14,457 nucleotides of DNA from Chitinophagaceae bacterium (GCA_031976225.1 DALYLQ010000006.1:1485-15941), one strand, 5' to 3'. Positions 5,393 to 14,457 are shown, counted from the first letter of the stretch. Numbers and translations are program-made. The notes: generated by a model not told the origin, from the sequence alone.

Positions 5393-6304
5393 ATGAGTAT
5401 TGTATTATCACTACATCAACTATCTAAAAACTACGGCAAGGTACAAGCCTTACAACAAGTAAGTTTCGATGTACCTCAAGGCTGTGTTTTTGGTATTTTA
5501 GGACCTAACGGTAGCGGCAAAACCACGCTTTTAGGTATTATTATGAACGTGCTGCAACCCACCAATGGCAACTTCACACTTTTAGGGAAACAACCATCGA
5601 ACGAAGTGCGCAAGCAAATTGGCACACTGTTAGAAACACCTAACTTTTATCATTATTTGAGTGGTGAACGTAATTTAGAAATAGCAGCCACCATTAAAGG
5701 TGTATCTAAAGCCGATATTACTACAGTACTAGAGAAAGTAAATTTATATGAACGTAGGCAAAGTAAATTTAGCACCTATAGTTTAGGCATGAAACAACGC
5801 CTAGCCATTGCGAGTGCATTACTTGGCAACCCCGATGTACTAGTACTAGACGAGCCTACCAATGGCCTCGACCCTGTTGGTATTGCAGAAATTCGCAACC
5901 TTATTATTCAACTAGCGAACGAGGGTAAAACCATTATTATGGCTAGCCACCTACTCGATGAAGTTGAAAAAGTATGTACCCATGTAGCGGTATTGCAAAA
6001 AGGAAAACTTCTCAATACAGGAACTGTTGACGAAGTATTTACCACAGGCGATAGCATTGCTACACTTCAAGCCGATGATTTAGACCAATTAGTAACTGTT
6101 ATCAAAACATTAGAAGGTGTTCAAAAAATACAAATCAAGAACAACACTTTACAGGTGCATTTCGATACAGCAATACTCTCTTTAAAAAGCATCAACTTAC
6201 ATTGCTTCAATAATGGTATTGTACTCAGTAGCTTACAGCTACAAAAACAAAGTTTAGAAAGCAAATTTTTAGCACTTACAGGTGGCCTTACGGTTAATCA
6301 TTAA
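5393..6304 (+). CDS. ABC transporter ATP-binding protein of ABC-2 / drug-efflux type, 303 aa, with a roughly 80-aa C-terminal extension.
   Basis: Walker A GPNGSGKTT, Q-loop, signature YSLGMKQRLAIASAL, Walker B VLVLDEPTNGLD, H-loop ASHLL. Confidence 0.9.
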   Translation: MSIVLSLHQLSKNYGKVQALQQVSFDVPQGCVFGILGPNGSGKTTLLGIIMNVLQPTNGNFTLLGKQPSNEVRKQIGTLLETPNFYHYLSGERNLEIAATIKGVSKADITTVLEKVNLYERRQSKFSTYSLGMKQRLAIASALLGNPDVLVLDEPTNGLDPVGIAEIRNLIIQLANEGKTIIMASHLLDEVEKVCTHVAVLQKGKLLNTGTVDEVFTTGDSIATLQADDLDQLVTVIKTLEGVQKIQIKNNTLQVHFDTAILSLKSINLHCFNNGIVLSSLQLQKQSLESKFLALTGGLTVNH

Positions 6305-6315
6305 TCAATAACAAC

Positions 6316-7107
6316 ATGTTACATTTACTTTACATAGAGTGGCTTAAACTCAAAAACTATCGTACCTTCTGGATTCTTGCGGCCTTATATTTAATCAGCA
6401 TATCAGGCATCAACTATATCACACTAGAATTCATCAAAAAAGCCTACGAAAACCCAGCCGCCAAACTTATTGCCGGAACGCATCCCTTCGCATTCCCCGA
6501 TGTATGGCAAACTGTAACTTACATGAGTAGCTTCACGCTGTTCTTACCGGGCTTACTCATTATTATCAACTACACTAATGAGTTTAGTTACAAAACACAT
6601 CGTCAAAACATCATTGATGGATATAGCCGCCAACAATACATTTCAATCAAAATCATACTTGTATTGTTGCTTGCCCTAATCAGTACACTGCTGGTAACAA
6701 TTAATGCGGCAGCTTTCGGCATAGCACATAACGAAACACCTTTCTCCTTTGAGAAAGCACATTATATCGGCTTGTATTTCGTTCAATGCTTAAACTATTT
6801 CGGGTTGGCACTATTACTCAGCGTACTCTTTAAAAGAGCAGCATTAGCAGTAGGCGTGTACTTTATATATATTGCTATTTTAGAAGATATGATTGGTGGT
6901 ATTATCAACCGATTTAAAGCACCTATAGGTAACTTCTTCCCTATTGATAGCGCCGATAGCCTTATTACCTTTCCTATGTTTAAAGAAGCACAAAAAACAT
7001 TACCCATTGTACGACCAGAATTATGGCAAGTAGCTATTGCATGCGGTATTTACATTGTACTTTATTACACTATCAGCTATTGGCGATTTAGCAAACAAGA
7101 TTTATAA
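6316..7107 (+). CDS. ABC-2 family transporter permease, 263 aa with about six TM segments.
   Basis: Starts 12 nt after the ATPase stop, indicating an operon. It has hydrophobic helices throughout. The size and topology are typical of ABC-2 permeases paired with the preceding ATPase. Confidence 0.75.
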   Translation: MLHLLYIEWLKLKNYRTFWILAALYLISISGINYITLEFIKKAYENPAAKLIAGTHPFAFPDVWQTVTYMSSFTLFLPGLLIIINYTNEFSYKTHRQNIIDGYSRQQYISIKIILVLLLALISTLLVTINAAAFGIAHNETPFSFEKAHYIGLYFVQCLNYFGLALLLSVLFKRAALAVGVYFIYIAILEDMIGGIINRFKAPIGNFFPIDSADSLITFPMFKEAQKTLPIVRPELWQVAIACGIYIVLYYTISYWRFSKQDL

Positions 7108-7118
7108 ACAAGCACCAT

Positions 7119-7146
7119 AACCAACCTTCGGGTTGGTTTTTTATTG
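7119..7146 (+). terminator. Rho-independent terminator after the ABC operon.
   Basis: Stem AACCAACC (7119-7126), loop TTCG, stem GGTTGGTT (7131-7138), then TTTTTATT. Confidence 0.8.
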
Positions 7147-7151
7147 TACAC

Positions 7152-7167
7152 TACCTTACGGTAAATG
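7152..7167 (-). repeat. Copy 5 of the recurrent motif, reverse orientation: TACCTTACGGTAAATG, the reverse complement of CATTTACCGTAAGGTA.
   Basis: Exact 16-mer match to copy 2. It sits immediately after the terminator and 38 nt upstream of the 7205 start. Confidence 0.65.
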
Positions 7168-7204
7168 ATGAAGCATAAATTTACCCTTCTATCGTAATAG
7201 CCTC

Positions 7205-8233
7205 ATGCAACGAAAAACCTTTTTACTACAATCGGCAGCAGCACTTGGCGGTGCTTTATTATACTCCAATCAAGCTTTTACCGCAAGGAAAAAGCCAAAG
7301 AAAATCATACAACCACCTTTTTTAAAAACGGGTGATACTATTGGCATTGTAGCACCCTCTGGCTATGTTACTGAAGCTACGGTTAAGGCTGCTATAGAAC
7401 GCATTCAAGCATGGGGTTTTAACGTTGCGCTAGGTAACACCATTGGCCAACGTTGGGGCACTTTTGCCGACACCGACGAAGCCCGTGCAGCCGATGTGCA
7501 AACCATGATTAACAATAGAAACATTAAAGCTATTCTTTGTGCTCGTGGTGGCTACGGATGGACAAGAATCATGCACCGCATTAATTGGAAATTGCTACAA
7601 CAACAACCCAAGTGGATGATTGGCTTTAGCGATGCAACAGTAGCTCATAGTTACATCAACACGCATCTACACATAGCGAGTATTCACAGTAAAATGTGCA
7701 ATAGCTTCCCCGACGATTGGGCAACCGCAACACCCGAACAACAAGCTACTATTAACAGCATTGAACAAGCTATTACCGGCAAGCCACTTCGCTATAACCT
7801 GCCAACAGATACCAACAATCAATTAGGTACTGTAACAGCTCCAATTATCGGTGGCAACTTGCGTTGTATCGAAAACCTTGCAGGAACACCCTATGCACTT
7901 CAAACAGCAGGAAAAATACTTGTTCTTGAAGATGTTGAAGAACCGCGTTACAATATAGACCGTATGTTTTGGAACCTCTATCATAGCGGTGTACTAGCTT
8001 CATTAAAAGGACTTATTATTGGCGGATTCAGAGAAAAAGCAGCCACCGACCCTAACGATGAGTTTGGTTTAACACTTCCCCAAATTGTACTCGAAAAAGT
8101 ACAAGCATATAACTACCCTGTTGCATTTCAAATGCCAATTGGGCATCAACGAAATAACTTTGCCATCAAACTAGGTGTTACACATCAATTAAACGTGAAT
8201 GCCGAATATTGCAGTTTAGAAGCACTTGCGTAA
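7205..8233 (+). CDS. LD-carboxypeptidase (peptidase S66, LdcA/MccF family) of 342 aa with an N-terminal export signal.
   Basis: S66 hallmarks: GDTIGIVAPSG, IKAILCARGGYG, the nucleophile motif GFSDAT, and a C-terminal region with His and Glu. The N-terminus MQRKTFLLQSAAALGGALLYSNQAFTA looks like a Tat-like signal with RK in place of RR, or a Sec signal. Confidence 0.8.
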   Translation: MQRKTFLLQSAAALGGALLYSNQAFTARKKPKKIIQPPFLKTGDTIGIVAPSGYVTEATVKAAIERIQAWGFNVALGNTIGQRWGTFADTDEARAADVQTMINNRNIKAILCARGGYGWTRIMHRINWKLLQQQPKWMIGFSDATVAHSYINTHLHIASIHSKMCNSFPDDWATATPEQQATINSIEQAITGKPLRYNLPTDTNNQLGTVTAPIIGGNLRCIENLAGTPYALQTAGKILVLEDVEEPRYNIDRMFWNLYHSGVLASLKGLIIGGFREKAATDPNDEFGLTLPQIVLEKVQAYNYPVAFQMPIGHQRNNFAIKLGVTHQLNVNAEYCSLEALA

Positions 8234-9148
8234 ATGACAACAACCATAACTCCACCTTATTTACAACCCGGCGATACAATTGCCATTACTTGCCCCGCAG
8301 GTTTCTTACCACATCACAAGGTAGAAGCTTGTGTAGCAACTTTGCAACTTTGGGGCTTTCGTGTAATCGTTGGCAATACAGTTGGCAATCAACATCATTA
8401 TTTCGCAGGCACTATCGAAGAAAGAAAAACAGAAATTCAAAACTTCTTAAACGATACTACCATTCAAGCCATTTTATGTGGTAGAGGTGGCTACGGTGTT
8501 AGTCAGATAATTGATACGCTAAATTTTGAGGTATTCAAGCAGCATCCCAAATGGTTATTAGGATTTAGCGATATTACCCTACTGCTCAACCATGTACTAG
8601 CTAATTATCAAGTAGCAAGTATGCACTGTTCAATGGCGGCAGCATTTACAAAGGAGCAACCTCAACCATTGCATATTCAAGCAATACACACATTACTTAC
8701 GGGAGGCAAGCAGGCTATTACGCAAGCTTTCAATCAACATAATGTACAAGGCATAGGAGCCGGAACGCTTATTGGTGGCAACCTCACTTTAATGGCACAT
8801 ATAATGGGTACAAATAGTTTACCGCAAGGTAACAACTACCTACTTTTCCTAGAAGATGTAGGCGAGTATTTGTACAATATCGATCGTATGTTGCACCAAT
8901 TAAAGCGAGCTGGTTTGTGGCAGCAAGTGAAAGGCATTATCGTCGGCGGATTTACCGATATGAAAGATACTACGATACCTTACGGTAAAAGTATAAACGC
9001 TATTGTTAGCGAGCACCTGCATGCGTTGAACATACCAGTGGCATTCGATATGCCTATCAGCCACGGCGAGCCTAACTATCCTGTAAAAGTAGGCGGATAC
9101 TACCAACTACACGTACACGAAGCTGGCGCTATACTACAAGAAATGTAA
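8234..9148 (+). CDS. Second LD-carboxypeptidase (S66) paralog of 304 aa with no signal peptide, so presumably cytoplasmic.
   Basis: Its ATG directly abuts the previous TAA (..GCGTAAATG..). It has [20 protein letters not shown] and GFSDIT. It is clearly paralogous to the preceding gene. Confidence 0.8.
8976..8989 (-). repeat. Copy 6 of the recurrent motif, located inside the coding sequence: TACCTTACGGTAAA, the reverse complement of TTTACCGTAAGGTA.
   Basis: Exact 14-mer embedded in the codons for IPYGKS of the second LD-carboxypeptidase. It lies about 275 nt upstream of the fumC start. Confidence 0.5.
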
Positions 9149-9264: not shown

Positions 9265-10665
9265 ATGGAATACCGTATAGAAAAAGATACGATGGGTAAG
9301 GTACAAGTACCTGCTCACGTGTATTGGGGTGCTCAAACGCAACGCAGTATCGAAAATTTCAAAATTGCGCAAGACATCAACAAAATGCCGAAAGAAATCA
9401 TTCAGGCATTTGCATACTTAAAGCATGCTGCGGCACTTGCCAATAACGAATTGGGCGTTTTACCCACTGAAAAGAAAGATGCTATTGCTACTGTATGCCA
9501 AGAAATTTTAGAAGGTAAGTTGGCCGATCAGTTTCCGTTGGTAGTATGGCAAACCGGTAGCGGCACACAAAGTAACATGAACGTGAACGAGGTAATTGCC
9601 TACCGTGCACACGTAATTAACGGTGGTTCATTACTCGATGAACAAAAATTCTTGCATCCGAACGACGATGTGAATAAAAGCCAAAGCTCTAACGATACGT
9701 TTCCAACAGCCATGCATATTGCAGCATACAAAATGTTGGTAGAGGTAACCATACCAGGCATTGAAAAACTACGTGATACCCTTGCGGCAAAAAGCAAAGC
9801 ATTCATGAATGTAGTTAAAATTGGGCGCACCCATTTTATGGATGCAACTCCACTTACCTTGGGTCAAGAATTTAGTGGTTATGTAAGCCAATTAAATCAT
9901 GGTTTAAAAGCCATCAAAAATAGCCTTGCACACCTCAGCGAATTAGCTTTGGGCGGTACTGCTGTGGGCACTGGCATTAATACCCCGAAAGGTTACGATG
10001 TTGTAGTTGCCAAACATATTGCTGCGCTTACAGGCCTGCCTTTTGAAACAGCAGAAAACAAATTCGAAGCGTTGGCAGCTCACGATGCCATCGTAGAAGC
10101 GCATGGTGCGTTGAAAACAGTAGCCGTAAGCCTTATGAAAATTGCTAACGATATCCGCATGTTATCGTCGGGGCCACGCTCAGGTATTGGCGAAATTTTC
10201 ATACCCGATAACGAGCCAGGAAGCTCTATTATGCCGGGCAAGGTTAACCCAACCCAATGTGAGGCACTTACTATGATTGCAGCACAGGTATTAGGTAACG
10301 ACGTTGCTATTAATATTGGTGGTGCTAATGGCCACTTCGAACTAAACGTGTTCAAGCCGGTAATGATTTATAACTTCTTGCACAGTGCCCGCTTAATTGG
10401 CGATGGCTGTGTAAGCTTTAACGATAAATGTGCAGAAGGTATTGAACCGCTGCACGATAACATCAAAAAACACGTTGATAATAGTTTAATGTTGGTAACT
10501 GCTTTAAACACCAAAATAGGCTACTACAAAGCAGCCGAAATTGCACAAACAGCCCACAAAAACGGCAGTACTTTAAAAGAAACTGCTGTTGCACTTGGTT
10601 ATCTTACCGCTGAAGAATTTGACCAATGGGTAATTCCGGGTAATATGGTTGGCGACATTAAGTAA
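9265..10665 (+). CDS. fumC: Class II fumarate hydratase (fumarase C), 467 aa.
   Basis: [13 protein letters not shown] and the signature [19 protein letters not shown] are the fumarase-type variants, not the aspartase-type ones. The start at the internal Met 9265 ([13 protein letters not shown]...) is the conserved FumC N-terminus. The track ORF beginning at 9181 looks like a spurious upstream extension. Confidence 0.9.
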
Positions 10666-10696
10666 GCTACACTTACGTGTAAATGATTGCAATATA

Positions 10697-10726
10697 AAAG
10701 CCCCGTTATCAAGCGGGGCTTTTGCT
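10697..10726 (+). terminator. Rho-independent terminator of fumC.
   Basis: Stem AAAAGCCCCG (10697-10706), loop TTATCAAG, stem CGGGGCTTTT (10715-10724). Confidence 0.8.
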
Positions 10727-11114
10727 TGCCTACTATTATCTATCTATACAATAATTACGCTACGTGAGTAATTATCCCAACATCTACCCTTTTATCCCAT
10801 CATTTCGCCACTCATCACACATACATTGCCAATAGTATGGATGTACTTACCAATCATCCCGATTGCACTAGGTGCATGAATAGCCGTAGGTATATCTTTG
10901 ACACTTCAAACTAATCAGCGCTGCGGCGCACTATTATGACTGCTTATATTGCTTCGTTATTATTCAATTTTCGCCAAAGAGTGAAACCACCAGAAGCATA
11001 ATTTATTCATCTCATTTTATTATTTCTTGTTGTTGTTGGCTGCATGTTGGCTTACATGTATAGCCGGTAATACTTGCTTTGCTGCTTATCCAATAGCACA
11101 AGACTTAATATTCT

Positions 11115-11129
11115 ATTTACCGTAAGGTA
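11115..11129 (+). repeat. Copy 7 of the recurrent motif: ATTTACCGTAAGGTA.
   Basis: Lies 30 nt upstream of the flotillin start. It is followed by an AT-rich stretch with TAAATTTTA, which resembles the Bacteroidetes -7 box TAnnTTTG. Confidence 0.6.
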
Positions 11130-11158
11130 TTATAATTTCATATCATAAATTTTATAAC

Positions 11159-13075
11159 ATGACATCGTTCTTATGGAGCTATGGATGGCTCTTTGTATTA
11201 ATGCTAGCATTGATTTTGTACAAACAAGTTTTGCGGATTTTCTTTGGTATGGTGATTGTACCCGAAGATAAAATTGGCTTAGTTACGAAAAAATTTGTGC
11301 TCTTTGGTGAACCTAAAGCCCTACCCGATGGGCGTATTATTGCTACTAAAGGTGAAGCGGGCTTTCAAGCTACAACACTAGCCCCTGGCTTGTATTGGTG
11401 GATGTGGCCTTGGCAATATGGTATTGACATGCATTCGTTCACGGTAATTCCGGAGGGTAAAATTGGCTTAGTACTTTCAAACGATGGTGCTGAACTTCCA
11501 ACAGGTAATATTTTAGCTCGAAAAGTAGAGTGTGATAACTTTCAAGACACAACTGCATTTCTTAGTAATGGTGGACAAAAAGGTAGACAAACACATGTGT
11601 TAACACCAGGTACCTACCGTATTAACACCTTTGCTTTTACTGTTACCATTGCAGAAATGACCATCATCAATGAAAATAAGGTGGGTGTTGTTACGACTTT
11701 AGATGGTGAACCATTACCTAGTAATCAAATTGCTGGTAGGCATATTGAAGGGCATAACAACTTCCAAGACGTTGATAGCTTCTTGGTACACGGGGGTAAT
11801 AGAGGCTTACAACCACAAGTAATTTTAGCAGGTAGCTACTATATTAATCCATGGGCTATTCAAATTGAGGAAATTTGGATGACAGAAGTACCTATTGGTA
11901 ATGTTGGTGTGGTAATCAGCTATATCGGAGAGGAAGGAACCGACTTAACAGGCGATGGGTTTAAGCATGGCAATATTGTAAGTAAAGGCTTTAAAGGTGT
12001 GTGGATGGAACCTTTAGGTCCGGGTAAATATCCCGTTAATAAATATACCATGAAGGTTGAATTGGTACCTACCACAAACTTAGTACTCAATTGGGCCAAT
12101 GCTCGCAGTGAAGCACATGCCCTTGATAAGAACCTAAGTACTATTACAGTGCGTAGTAAAGATGGTTTCCCTTTTAACCTAGATGTAGCACAGATTATAC
12201 ACGTACCAGCCAATGAAGCTCCTAAGGTAATTGCACGTTTTGGTAGCATGACCAATTTAGTAAGTCAGGTACTAGAACCAACTATTGGTAACTACTTCCG
12301 TAACTCTGCTCAAGACAGTGATGTGATTTCGTTCTTAACAACACGTAAAGAACGCCAACAAGCCGCTAAAAATCATATCAAAGAAGTATTAGATGAGTAT
12401 AATGTTTATGCAGTAGACACTTTAATTGGTGATATTGTTCCGCCCGAAGCACTCATGAAAACCTTAACGGATCGCAAAATTGCTGAGGAAGAACAAAAAA
12501 CCTATCAAACCCAACGTATGGCACAAGAGCAGCGCCAAGGAGTTGAAAAAGAAACGGCTATTGCTGATATGCAGAAAGAAATTGTAAAAGCGCAACAAAG
12601 TGTAGAAATTGCACAGCGTACCGCCGATGCAGCCGTTAAAAAAGCTGAGGGTGATGCTACTAGTTTAAAACTGCAAGTAAATGCCGAAGCTGAGGCCACA
12701 AAAATGCGAGCTATCGCTGAAGCAGAAGCTACTAAAGCTAGAGCCGGAGCACAAGCAGAAGCTACCAAACTAAATGCTTCTGCCGATGCTGAACGTATTT
12801 CAAAAACGGGCCTAGCAGAAGCCGAAAAAATCATGGCAATTGGTAAGAGTACCGCCGAAGCCTACGAATTACAAGTAAAAGCTATGGGTAACGATAACTT
12901 CACTCGATTCAAAATAACGGAAGCCATTGGTAAAGAAAACATAAAAATAATTCCAGATGTTTTAATTAGTGGCGGCAATGGCACCGATGGAAGCATTAGT
13001 GGCTTGCTCGGTTTGAAATTAATGGATATGCTTCAAGATAAAAATACACTTGAAACACAATCTACTAATAGCTAA
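11159..13075 (+). CDS. Flotillin-family SPFH/band-7 membrane scaffold protein of 638 aa. It has an N-terminal TM anchor, four tandem 60-75-aa repeats, an SPFH core and a C-terminal Ala/Glu-rich flotillin coiled coil.
   Basis: N-terminal helix SYGWLFVLMLALILY. Repeats begin VPEDKIGLV, IPEGKIGLV, INENKVGVV and VPIGNVGVV, each with LP.G.I...NFQD..FL..GG..G.Q..V..G.Y.IN. SPFH core DVISFLTTRKERQQAAKNHIKEVLDEYNVYAVDTLIGDIVPPEALMKTLTDRKIAEEE. EA repeats AEAEATKMRAIAEAEATKARAGAQAEATK. Confidence 0.85.
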   Translation: MTSFLWSYGWLFVLMLALILYKQVLRIFFGMVIVPEDKIGLVTKKFVLFGEPKALPDGRIIATKGEAGFQATTLAPGLYWWMWPWQYGIDMHSFTVIPEGKIGLVLSNDGAELPTGNILARKVECDNFQDTTAFLSNGGQKGRQTHVLTPGTYRINTFAFTVTIAEMTIINENKVGVVTTLDGEPLPSNQIAGRHIEGHNNFQDVDSFLVHGGNRGLQPQVILAGSYYINPWAIQIEEIWMTEVPIGNVGVVISYIGEEGTDLTGDGFKHGNIVSKGFKGVWMEPLGPGKYPVNKYTMKVELVPTTNLVLNWANARSEAHALDKNLSTITVRSKDGFPFNLDVAQIIHVPANEAPKVIARFGSMTNLVSQVLEPTIGNYFRNSAQDSDVISFLTTRKERQQAAKNHIKEVLDEYNVYAVDTLIGDIVPPEALMKTLTDRKIAEEEQKTYQTQRMAQEQRQGVEKETAIADMQKEIVKAQQSVEIAQRTADAAVKKAEGDATSLKLQVNAEAEATKMRAIAEAEATKARAGAQAEATKLNASADAERISKTGLAEAEKIMAIGKSTAEAYELQVKAMGNDNFTRFKITEAIGKENIKIIPDVLISGGNGTDGSISGLLGLKLMDMLQDKNTLETQSTNS

Positions 13076-13080
13076 AATAT

Positions 13081-13099
13081 GGGGCGGCTTAGCCGCCCC
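13081..13099 (+). other. GC-rich stem-loop of GGGGCGG, a 5-nt loop and CCGCCCC. It is a possible weak terminator or RNA-processing element between the flotillin gene and the lipoprotein gene.
   Basis: Seen directly in the sequence. No T-tract follows on the + strand, so rho-independent termination here is uncertain. Confidence 0.4.
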
Positions 13100-13151
13100 A
13101 CAAGCAAAAACCATCCAGAAAGTATTTAATTTGATACATCAACATAAACAC

Positions 13152-13475
13152 ATGTCACGTATTACAACTACTACCCTAGCTGCAATATTGCTAGTACTAT
13201 TTAGCTGCAACGATAAAAATGAAGATATTACGGAAGATGTTAACCGTAAAGGAGCTGTTGAAAGCAGCATGAGTGTTGAACATATTGATAGCCTGCACGA
13301 CCTACTCATTACCAAACATACCGTTTGGCACAATGGAGCCGTTGCAAGGGTATTTGAACATAGAGATACCTTACCGGCTCTCGGCGATACACTCACTGAA
13401 GCTGAAAACAACGAAGGCGATACCAAACAAATTCTAGTGAAAAAAGATTATGAAATTTTCATTACCATTAAGTAA
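13152..13475 (+). CDS. Small hypothetical lipoprotein, 107 aa.
   Basis: The track ORF starts at TTG 13050 and overlaps the flotillin stop. The internal ATG at 13152 gives MSRITTTTLAAILLVLFSC NDKNED, a signal peptide ending in a lipobox-like LFSC and then an acidic mature N-terminus. I see no recognisable domain. Confidence 0.5.
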   Translation: MSRITTTTLAAILLVLFSCNDKNEDITEDVNRKGAVESSMSVEHIDSLHDLLITKHTVWHNGAVARVFEHRDTLPALGDTLTEAENNEGDTKQILVKKDYEIFITIK

Positions 13476-13489
13476 CTACGCAACAACAC

Positions 13490-13834
13490 ATGAAAAAATC
13501 TAAACATATAGAACTAGTATTAATTACCGCAGCACTGGCAAGCTGTAACCAACCCAAATACAAAAACAACGAGTGGGAAAGCGGTAACAAAACCTATGTT
13601 CGTGCCGATAGCACAGCACCATATACGCGTACACATTACCACGGTGGTGGTGTAGGCCGCTGGTTCTATGCCTTCAGACCTTATGGCGAGTATAACAGTT
13701 TTCAAAATGGCTACAGTAAAGCTGGTTATTATTCTAACGCTATCAGCGAAAAAAGCAACATTGGTTATAACAACAATAAATTCGGCATTGTACGTGGCGG
13801 CTTTGGTCGTAGCTCTTACAGTGCTAGTAGCTAA
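13490..13834 (+). CDS. Small Gly/Tyr/Asn-rich lipoprotein of 114 aa. It may be a DUF1190 (YgiB/YjfM)-like partner of the downstream ATP-grasp gene.
   Basis: MKKSKHIELVLITAALASC NQ.. has a lipoprotein signal and lipobox LASC. The body is low-complexity and Gly/Tyr-rich, ending GIVRGGFGRSSYSASS. It sits directly upstream of a YgiC-like gene, as ygiB and yjfM do in enterobacteria. The homology is inferred and not verified. Confidence 0.5.
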   Translation: MKKSKHIELVLITAALASCNQPKYKNNEWESGNKTYVRADSTAPYTRTHYHGGGVGRWFYAFRPYGEYNSFQNGYSKAGYYSNAISEKSNIGYNNNKFGIVRGGFGRSSYSASS

Positions 13835-13873
13835 GCATTTACCGTAAGGTGATAACTGCCTTACGGCAAATGC
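13835..13873. repeat. Copies 8 and 9 of the recurrent motif arranged as a 15-bp imperfect inverted repeat around a 9-nt spacer. It could form a hairpin or be a dyad operator.
   Basis: GCATTTACCGTAAGG (13835-13849), then TGATAACTG, then CCTTACGGCAAATGC (13859-13873). There is one mismatch (A/G), the same variant position as in the 625/721 pair. It lies between the lipoprotein stop (13834) and the ATP-grasp start (13906). Confidence 0.65.
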
Positions 13874-13905
13874 TAACGCTATCAATATTATTTTAATATT
13901 ATTAC

Positions 13906-14457
13906 ATGCAACGACATATTATTACGCCGCGACATCAATGGCAACATGCGGTGGAAAAATTAGGCTTTGGCTTTCACACACATCCCATAGCCTATTGGGA
14001 TGAATCAACAGCCTACAGCTTTTCTATGAACGAAATAGTGGCATTAGAAAAAGCCACATCAACACTTTGGGATATGTGCCTTAGTGCAGTACAACACATT
14101 ATTGATGAAGAACGCTACACGCAGCTAAGCGTACCAACAACAGCAATACACCTCATAGAAAAAAGTTGGCAAGAAGATCATCCGTCTATTTACGGACGCT
14201 TCGATTTGTGCTATAAAAACAATGAAATCAAACTTTTAGAATTCAATGCCGATACACCTACAAGCTTATTTGAAGCTGGTATTGTGCAATGGTTTTGGCT
14301 AAAAGATATTGATGCCAATAAAGATCAATTCAATAGCATACACGAAAAACTGATTGATTATTGGAAGTATCTTAAAAACTATCTGCATAACGATACACTT
14401 TATTTTACCTGCTTAAAAGAAACGCTTGAAGACCTTACAAATACAGAGTATCTACGC
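13906..14457 (+). CDS. Glutathionylspermidine synthetase-like ATP-grasp protein (GSP_synth family, YgiC/YjfC-type). The N-terminal 184 aa are present and the gene continues past the window end.
   Basis: ATG at 13906, with frame 1 open to the last base. My translation is MQRHIITPRHQWQHAVEKLGFGFHT...RFDLCYKNNEIKLLEFNADTPTSLFEAGIVQWFWL...DQFNSIHEKLIDYWK. This matches my recollection of the conserved pre-ATP-grasp region of E. coli YgiC/YjfC (a ...KLLE.NADTPTSLYE... block). It is absent from the supplied ORF track because no stop codon falls within the window. Confidence 0.8.
   Translation, partial: MQRHIITPRHQWQHAVEKLGFGFHTHPIAYWDESTAYSFSMNEIVALEKATSTLWDMCLSAVQHIIDEERYTQLSVPTTAIHLIEKSWQEDHPSIYGRFDLCYKNNEIKLLEFNADTPTSLFEAGIVQWFWLKDIDANKDQFNSIHEKLIDYWKYLKNYLHNDTLYFTCLKETLEDLTNTEYLR

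Follow-up and report, generated by a model that had tools for sequence, protein, structure and literature searches.

A conserved lipoprotein–lipoprotein–ATP-grasp gene trio in Chitinophagaceae, a likely counterpart of DUF1190–YgiC/YjfC pairs, with a flotillin gene as facultative neighbour

A 14,457-nt stretch of DNA from a Chitinophagaceae bacterium (GCA_031976225.1, DALYLQ010000006.1:1485-15941; hereafter the window) carries at its 3′ end four + strand genes, which encode a flotillin-type membrane protein, two small lipoproteins (A and B) and a YgiC/YjfC-type ATP-grasp ligase. We found that the two lipoprotein genes and the ligase gene, here called the trio, are a very stable unit in Chitinophagaceae. 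The trio is most likely the counterpart, in this family of Bacteroidota, of the proteobacterial DUF1190 and YgiC/YjfC pairs ygiBC and yjfMC, and it is probably the functional unit, with the flotillin gene as a facultative neighbour. An earlier note made from the sequence alone had read all four genes as one module. The trio part of that reading is conserved, whereas flotillin is absent from ~80% of trio loci and ~86% of flotillin loci lack the trio. The flotillin link is thus weaker than was proposed; the four-gene observation itself is real and non-random, and it is not a new system.

The co-orientation of the four genes and the short gaps of 76, 14 and 71 nt between them, both claimed in the earlier note, are confirmed by the open reading frame (ORF) coordinates. 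Lipoprotein A (107 aa, lipobox LFSC) is encoded at 13152-13475, with the start placed at the ATG preceding the signal peptide. Lipoprotein B (114 aa, lipobox LASC), a Gly/Tyr/Ser-rich protein with an RGGFG...SS tail, is encoded at 13490-13834. The ligase gene starts at 13906 and is truncated at the window end (14457), with the 5′ 184 of its 377 codons inside. The window, which has a G+C content of ~40%, is a 100% match to part of contig DMPB01000017.1 (GCA_003456175.1), and the full ligase gene and the gene downstream of it were read there; because that next gene is a convergent queA, the cluster ends after the ligase. The closest relatives of the window are Chitinophagaceae metagenome-assembled genomes.

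Relatives of lipoprotein B were found in 226 species, represented by one genome each, and the best 80 of these 226 loci were analysed with flanks of up to 10 kb. The lipoprotein A gene lies directly upstream of the lipoprotein B gene in 76 of the 76 loci with enough upstream flank, and the ATP-grasp gene lies directly downstream of it in 70 of the 72 with enough downstream flank. Throughout these 80 Chitinophagaceae species loci the trio genes have the same order and are always co-oriented. The conserved neighbourhood of orthologues anticipated by the earlier note is therefore strongly evident for lipoA-lipoB-ligase (76/76 and 70/72). Both exceptions to ligase adjacency are Segetibacter genomes, in which lipoA and lipoB stand without a neighbouring ligase gene.

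The Segetibacter lipoA-lipoB pair (L010, L052 and L062 in our numbering of loci) adjoins cyanophycinase and cyanophycin synthetase genes, and its lipoprotein B keeps the RGGFG tail. In one metagenomic population (L109-L112, ~7336-8100) the lipoprotein B gene is tandemly duplicated, two copies being found between lipoA and the ligase gene, and a flotillin gene is also present upstream. Beside the trio in ~39 of the 80 loci (for example L014, 8092-9558) are genes for TM135, a 135-aa multi-pass membrane protein that belongs to no Pfam family, and for a DAO-family FAD (flavin adenine dinucleotide) oxidoreductase. TM135 is found on either side of the trio and also flanks flotillin where the trio is missing; it has no similarity to YjfL/DUF350, and both the TM135 and the DAO oxidoreductase genes are absent from the window.

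The label of YgiC/YjfC-type ATP-grasp given earlier to the last gene is well supported. The full-length 377-aa ligase matches PF03738 (GSP_synth) with 501 bits (2.8e-150) over profile positions 1-371, above the gathering score, and the fragment in the window alone matches it with 209.8 bits (9e-62). Over its full length the ligase is 44% identical to E. coli YgiC and 43% identical to YjfC, and its best PDB matches are YgiC (7UK8, 9e-104) and YjfC (7UK6, 4.5e-95); the match to GspS is weaker (7e-32) and covers the C-terminal part only. It scores 48.8 against a cut-off of 882 for the NCBIfam bifunctional GspS equivalog, and it has no N-terminal CHAP amidase domain and, with low N-terminal hydropathy, no signal peptide. 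According to the summary of Sui 2012 and Pederick 2023 given in PMC11762307, YgiC and YjfC lack glutathionylspermidine synthetase activity and have peptide-spermidine ligase activity in vitro, and their physiological substrate is described in that summary as unknown. E. coli RefSeq product names also give peptide-spermidine ligase for both, and a 2025 TolC review explicitly lists their physiological substrate and role as open. Judged by its 44% full-length identity, the Chitinophagaceae enzyme is a putative ATP-dependent peptide-polyamine ligase.

The signal peptide of lipoprotein B ends in …TAALASC, and its 94 mature residues, which include 13 Gly, 12 Tyr and 12 Ser, terminate in VRGGFGRSSYSASS; an example of the tail peptide is GIVRGGFGRSSYSASS. 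The family comprises 624 clusters at 90% identity, or 170 representatives at 50% identity out of 1.84 billion searched. Among the matches listed, nearly all members are ~100-130 aa long and all named organisms are Chitinophagaceae or closely related Bacteroidota. In two alignments R102, G103, G104, F105, G106 and the terminal Ser are invariant or at least 90% conserved and, outside the signal peptide, RGGFG and the final Ser are the only positions kept at this level in the most divergent members. Moreover, among the 1835 ORFs of the fetched loci, the motif is found within the last 30 residues only in the lipoprotein B family. An AlphaFold2 model built with an alignment has a mean predicted local distance difference test (pLDDT) score of 37.9, and lipoprotein B is accordingly predicted to be a disordered Gly/Tyr/Ser-rich protein with no confidently modelled structure.

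The tail is shared with DUF1190 proteins, as the earlier note had stated. We compared the C-termini encoded by neighbours of YgiC-like genes from diverse plasmid/chromid records and from E. coli. In YgiB, in YjfM and in the proteins from Sulfitobacter, Asticcacaulis, Acinetobacter and Nocardia, each encoded beside a YgiC-like gene, RGG[FYL]G precedes the C-terminus by 8-23 residues. Near their C-termini YgiB reads TRGGFG and YjfM SRGGYG. The Acinetobacter protein is a 125-aa lipoprotein that ends in IRGGFGRSGFSFGG and falls below the Pfam DUF1190 threshold, and the Nocardia protein is anchored by a transmembrane (TM) segment and reads RGGLG; the tails of the Rhizobium and Azospirillum proteins are degenerate (RQGFG and SAGFG). 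A DUF1190 gene lies next to a YgiC/YjfC-type gene in E. coli, Rhizobium, Azospirillum, Asticcacaulis and Sulfitobacter, and the lipoprotein B gene is likewise placed, across its 71-nt gap. A homologue search with YgiB gave only enterobacterial proteins, at least 82% identical, among the 120 matches listed.

Over the body of the protein, the similarity to DUF1190 expected by the earlier note is not found at the level of hidden Markov models (HMMs) or profiles. PF06693 (DUF1190) gives no match to lipoprotein B at E≤1 and none to 26 family members at E≤10, while the same model scores 187 bits with YgiB, 64 with YjfM, 120 with the Rhizobium protein and 125 with that of Sulfitobacter. Searching the 1.84 billion representatives with a lipoprotein B profile returned matches of 59-161 aa, none of DUF1190 length, among the 150 of 170 listed. 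Four Cys (C53, C64, C88 and C97) are invariant or near-invariant in the DUF1190 alignment, which also has a conserved central hydrophobic FxxPLxAGY segment; mature lipoprotein B has no Cys and no hydrophobic segment of this type. When lipoprotein B was compared by hhalign with YgiB, YjfM and the DUF1190 alignment, only the two termini aligned, namely a C-terminal stretch of 11-12 residues (E 0.003-0.004) and the signal region (84-97% probability). With Pfam, profile search and hhalign all negative over the body, we rejected lipoprotein B as a detectable DUF1190 member; the most fitting description is that of a minimal DUF1190-like lipoprotein in which just the two termini are retained. Signal peptide and tail are all that this minimal protein of another phylum shares with DUF1190, and its gene is still firmly linked to that of the ligase, which suggests that it is the tail that matters for function.

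Lipoprotein A has a signal peptide ending in …LLVLFSC and a mature length of ~90 aa. Its family, aligned with 60 sequences, has a median identity of 55% and the motifs VEHLDS, YRDTxPALG and KKDYEIFIT, and its AlphaFold2 model, computed from the single sequence, has a pLDDT of ~37-38. Pfam and NCBIfam scans of both lipoproteins returned nothing above noise. In residues 19-30 of lipoprotein A (window 13152-13210) an acidic stretch follows the lipidated Cys, C-N-D-K-N-E-D, with a family consensus of C-x-x-x-N-E-D; lipoprotein B has no acidic patch at this place. We take the patch, as a lead only, to resemble the export signal of Bacteroidetes surface lipoproteins.

The first gene of the run, 11159-13075 on the + strand, encodes a 638-aa SPFH/Band-7 protein for which the earlier label of flotillin holds, with a Band_7 domain, an N-terminal anchor and an Ala/Glu-rich C-terminal region. 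Band_7 covers residues 243-456 only (82.2 bits against a Pfam cut-off of 23.6), and the single hydrophobic segment is N-terminal, at residues ~1-35. Between the two, residues 33-244 (window 11255-11890) hold three further copies of the first SPFH beta-segment, ~210 extra residues with the repeated pattern V/I-P-E-G-K-I-G-L-V ... P-G-x-Y. The C-terminal region is Ala/Glu/Lys-rich (33 Ala, 21 Glu and 17 Lys among the 160 residues 441-600). Among the matches listed, orthologues are slow-evolving, almost all being 79-85% identical and the closest 94%, and the repeat-bearing architecture is conserved across Chitinophagaceae over this range of ~79-94% identity. A PDB sequence search with the flotillin gave no matches, and its score with the FloT NCBIfam equivalog, 16.7 against a cut-off of 700 bits, is far below threshold. 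No NfeD/YqiJ-type partner gene lies beside it in the window, where its neighbours are fumC upstream and lipoA downstream.

The flotillin gene is not, as had been claimed, a fixed member of the module. It adjoins the trio in 15 of the 80 loci (15 of the ~54 where both sides could be judged), preceding lipoA in nine, which is the arrangement of the window, and following the ligase gene in six, and it is always co-oriented with the trio and scattered patchily on the ligase tree. Each arrangement is represented by a cultured relative: Ferruginibacter sp. HRS2-29 (L053) has flotillin upstream, Parasediminibacterium paludis CECT 8010 (L090) has it downstream, and Sediminibacterium ginsengisoli DSM 22335 (L085) has none beside the trio. 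Viewed from the flotillin side, 8 of 56 informative metagenomic orthologue loci have the trio (five downstream and three upstream), and the other 48 lack it. Unrelated genes surround the flotillin orthologue in Ferruginibacter albus and Flavihumibacter petaseus. Many Chitinophagaceae share a block of TonB receptor, DAO oxidoreductase, TM135, [trio], [flotillin] and AspRS genes, in which the trio alone, flotillin alone or both may be present.

Close relatives of the window make the same point within one lineage. The flotillin gene is carried, identical to the window (100%), by the source strain and two assemblies (L001, L003 and L005), and is missing from L002, L004 and L006, whose flanks are ~97-99% identical, and from the sister species L013, with flanks of ~92-94% identity; it has thus been lost between strains with 98% identical flanks. 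In these four flotillin-less loci a segment of 1969 bp (11132-13100), which comprises the leader, the ORF and a hairpin (H1), is replaced by the same 43 bp, with identical blastn break-points. Because L093, a species ~85% identical, has flotillin and hairpin at the same site and with matching divergence, presence of the gene is ancestral in this lineage and its absence is a deletion allele.

The 43-bp filler was considered as a remnant of the flotillin gene and rejected, since its resemblance to the deleted segment falls short of significance, with 34% of shuffles scoring equally well. We also observed an exact 14-nt direct repeat, ATTTACCGTAAGGT, at 11115-11128 and 13837-13850; in this 3.9-kb region, chance alone would give ~0.03 such repeats. 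Its left copy, which stops 3 nt short of the presence/absence segment, is found in the flotillin-less alleles and in L093 as well; the other copy forms the left arm of a second hairpin, H2.

The earlier statement that no strong terminators separate the four genes is right in that no canonical hairpin and U-tract sites were found between them on the + strand, and wrong in that strong stem-loops, H1 and H2, occupy two of the three gaps. H1 (13080-13100, + strand; -20 kcal/mol, z -4.1) begins 4 nt after the flotillin stop and has a 9-bp G/C stem of the GGGGCGGCU-UAG-CCGCCCC type. It has no + strand U-tract, is flagged by a consensus scan only as a minus-strand terminator, and is conserved in L093 with a changed loop. 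H2 (13834-13874, + strand; 17 pairs, -22.3 kcal/mol, z -6.8) starts at the stop codon of lipoprotein B, fills most of the lipoB-ligase gap, also lacks a U-tract and is conserved in L013. For comparison, the fumarase gene upstream ends in a textbook hairpin and U-tract at 10695-10724. Stem-loops with z<-2 occupy the lipoB-ligase gap in 36% of 50 species loci; they are strong and non-homologous, and may allow the lipoproteins and the enzyme to be expressed independently of each other.

In nine loci (L013, L020, L024, L028, L036, L053, L055, L069 and L081) the gap stem-loops have z below -5 and unrelated sequences. Several are built of CCCCCTAAAGGGGG-type palindromes and look like a dispersed repeat family.

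Between H1 and lipoprotein A, at 13119-13134 on the + strand and 18-33 nt upstream of the lipoA ATG, lies an A/T-rich element, AAAGTATTTAATTTGA. It is unchanged in the window, L002, L004, L013 and L093, with one T-for-C change in L013 two bases past it, and in L093 the stretch that separates it from H1 is divergent. The strict Bacteroidetes -7 motif, TAnnTTTG, was found upstream of lipoA in only 3 of 59 loci, and the element does not match it. On the strength of its local conservation, the element is a candidate promoter of the trio. Taken together, H1, the candidate promoter and the clean excision of flotillin argue that the trio functions independently and is probably transcribed independently of flotillin, the flotillin gene being probably a separate, putatively separately transcribed gene.

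The explanation that fares best beside a functional trio with an optional flotillin is that all four genes are one membrane-associated system, in which flotillin, as the equivalent of PspA (YjfJ), is a scaffold that organises the ligase/lipoprotein site. Adjacency of two given genes by chance would be expected at ~0.05% in a genome of ~4000 genes, against the adjacent and co-oriented flotillin of 15/80 species in two orders, patchy on the ligase tree, and the trio at 8/56 flotillin loci. Moreover, the trio, flotillin and a polyamine operon are united in L008 and L018, and in ATP-grasp/DUF1190 polyamine operons a band-7 protein is known to replace the CesT/Tir-PspA dyad (PMC11237479). We nevertheless consider such a system rather unlikely, given that ~80% of trios lack a flotillin gene in the surrounding 10 kb and ~86% of flotillin loci have no trio, that flotillin is cleanly deleted between near-identical strains, and that it has its own hairpin behind it and lipoA a promoter-like element before it. 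In addition, none of eight diverse non-Bacteroidota YgiC-like loci has an SPFH gene, and the flotillin lacks the C-terminal 2TM or SHOCT of the published band-7 variant.

Alternatively, the adjacency could be inherited synteny without functional meaning, flotillin and trio having shared one ancestral block from which lineages lost or moved either. The same flanks surround trio-only, flotillin-only (DAO-TM135-SPFH-AspRS) and combined loci, flotillin has unrelated neighbours in many genomes, and its deletion allele is segregating, all of which speaks for mere synteny. Both gene orders exist, however, so that the adjacency has survived at least one rearrangement. In the lineage of the window, flotillin abuts the trio within a different block (fumC upstream and queA downstream), and an independent linkage of band-7 and polyamine-ligase genes is found in other phyla (PMC11237479). 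Meaningless synteny is unlikely to be the explanation.

How the trio might work can be outlined from the E. coli enzymes. At the expense of ATP, the cytoplasmic ATP-grasp ligase would join a polyamine to a peptide carboxylate through an amide bond, as its E. coli homologues do in vitro. It is encoded with two exported lipoproteins, of which lipoprotein B, the bearer of the tail, would be its envelope-side partner, either as a substrate whose C-terminus is modified before Sec export or as a binder of the peptidyl-polyamine product; under stress, the trio cassette would thereby tune the charge or stability of the envelope. We infer both this partner or substrate role and the transcription units. 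The main difficulty for the substrate idea is topology: as the tail is predicted to be extracytoplasmic and the ligase cytoplasmic, any direct modification of the tail would have to precede export. In its most specific form, the proposal holds that the RGGFG-tailed lipoproteins (lipoprotein B and the DUF1190 proteins YgiB and YjfM) are the long-sought physiological substrates of YgiC/YjfC-type enzymes, polyamine-amidated at the C-terminus before Sec export, with flotillin or PspA organising or protecting the site. This form we regard as speculative and decidedly unlikely; if true, it would mean that a lipid-anchored, polyamine-capped disordered protein is delivered to the envelope.

Several observations weigh against our preferred account, in which the trio is the functional unit, the counterpart of the DUF1190 pairs, and flotillin is an optional neighbour. 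Lipoprotein B has no HMM- or profile-level DUF1190 homology, and the RGGFG tail common to both could be of low complexity and have arisen by convergence; the DUF1190-like protein encoded beside a more distant ligase (29% identity) in Bacillus has no tail. Predictions place the tail on the extracytoplasmic side in each of the three phyla, on a lipoprotein or, in Nocardia, on an N-in single-TM protein, and the ligase has no signal peptide. Segetibacter retains lipoA-lipoB without an adjacent ligase gene. Since neither H1 nor H2 has a U-tract, all four genes may still be co-transcribed. Flotillin, finally, is always co-oriented with the trio and found at both of its ends, from which some functional link can be argued; any such link, for example membrane-microdomain scaffolding parallel to that of PspA/band-7, is facultative.

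With the trio taken as the unit, some practical consequences follow. YgiB and DUF1190 are functionally uncharacterised, and through the conserved tail the targets of YgiC/YjfC enzymes can be approached directly by experiment. Because flotillin is not fixed, trio and flotillin should be treated separately in deletion and co-expression studies, and the natural flotillin-plus and flotillin-minus strains offer an isogenic-like comparison.

Other features of the window lie mostly upstream. Minus-strand ORFs within the four genes (for example 11920-12255, 12505-12834 and 13520-13885) were rejected as shadows of the coding frames. At 493 nt, the intergenic region from the fumarase terminator to the flotillin start (10666-11158) is of unusual length, and its + strand is rich in T (AT skew -0.18 at 11001-11500). 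Its sequence is 93-96% conserved in close relatives and only 79% in L093, has no Rfam match, and contains a 32-codon TTG ORF as its sole ORF; when 10500-14457 was scanned with Rfam, nothing but sub-threshold noise appeared, at the fumC terminator. Before the fumarase gene, the + strand at 5393-9148 encodes the ATPase and the ABC-2 permease of an ABC transporter, together with two Peptidase_S66 (LD-carboxypeptidase-like) paralogues in tandem; all of these are syntenic in L002 and L093. The second S66 gene and the fumarase gene are intact ORFs in the window and fragments as called on the NCBI contig L001.

Among characterised flotillins, the window protein resembles YqiK of E. coli and FloT of B. 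subtilis in having an N-terminal anchor, an SPFH domain and a long Ala/Glu-rich C-terminal region, and the JGI name of its orthologues is 'uncharacterized membrane protein YqiK'. It differs from both in scoring below the FloT cut-off, in its ~210 extra N-terminal residues and in the absence of an adjacent NfeD/YqiJ gene.

A closer parallel to the gene neighbourhood is found in the polyamine operons described by Ravi et al. 2024 (mSystems 9:e00847-23, PMC11237479), which contain ATP-grasp/DUF1190 and in one variant of which the CesT/Tir-PspA dyad is replaced by band-7. As in those operons, an ATP-grasp related to glutathionylspermidine synthetase is coupled here to a lipoprotein and a membrane-dynamics protein. 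In the published variant, the band-7 domain is fused to a C-terminal 2TM and SHOCT and accompanied by AdoMetDC and polyamine oxidase, whereas the window flotillin is anchored at its N-terminus, contains an N-terminal SPFH sub-segment in triplicate and carries a long Ala/Glu-rich tail, without 2TM or SHOCT. The flotillin-trio linkage is, moreover, facultative and polymorphic here, and DUF350, DUF2491 and a K+ channel are absent from the window; no DUF350, AdoMetDC or polyamine oxidase gene was found in the window or within 10 kb on the source contig. The central idea of the earlier note, that band-7 replaces PspA, is thus already published in concept. For the substitution of flotillin for PspA that it proposed there is a precedent in this band-7 replacement, if of different architecture, and the part that fails is a fixed place for flotillin here.

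A divergent polyamine operon (AdoMetDC-DUF4178-DUF350-spermine-synthase-amine-oxidase) abuts trio and flotillin in L008 and L018, the only loci where it stands beside the trio, and these are the Chitinophagaceae version of the published operon type. The operon (L008, 206-6015; also in L018 and L116) includes a gene for a 58-aa protein, and its spermine-synthase-like protein is TM-fused; at least the AdoMetDC end of such an operon lies upstream of the trio in L151. The ygiB gene is Cpx-regulated, and its deletion leads to stress-dependent growth defects (pH, peroxide) in Citrobacter. With the polyamine operon of L008/L018, Cpx-regulated ygiB and the published polyamine operons, a polyamine and envelope context is plausible, in keeping with the envelope-stress or membrane module suggested earlier.

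The E. coli loci themselves are annotated as the earlier note had described them, as tolC-ygiB(DUF1190)-ygiC and as yjfI-yjfJ(PspA)-yjfK-yjfL-yjfM(DUF1190)-yjfC. Of their other genes, tolC and those for DUF350, DUF2491 and PspA are absent from the window, and the trio differs from ygiBC and yjfMC in always including lipoprotein A, which has no proteobacterial counterpart. Lipoprotein B is half the size of YgiB and YjfM (114 versus 212-223 aa), lacks their four conserved Cys and FWMPLMAGY segment, and is undetected by PF06693. In both settings, the gene for a small lipidated protein stands immediately upstream of a stand-alone ATP-grasp gene, and the enzymes are 43-44% identical. Low AlphaFold confidence is common to lipoprotein B (pLDDT ~38) and, as reported in the account given by PMC11762307, to YgiB. 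Lipoprotein B and YgiB/YjfM are alike, too, at both ends of the chain: their signal peptides start in a similar way, with MK(K/R)(S/T)K, and their C-termini bear an RGG[FY]G tail.

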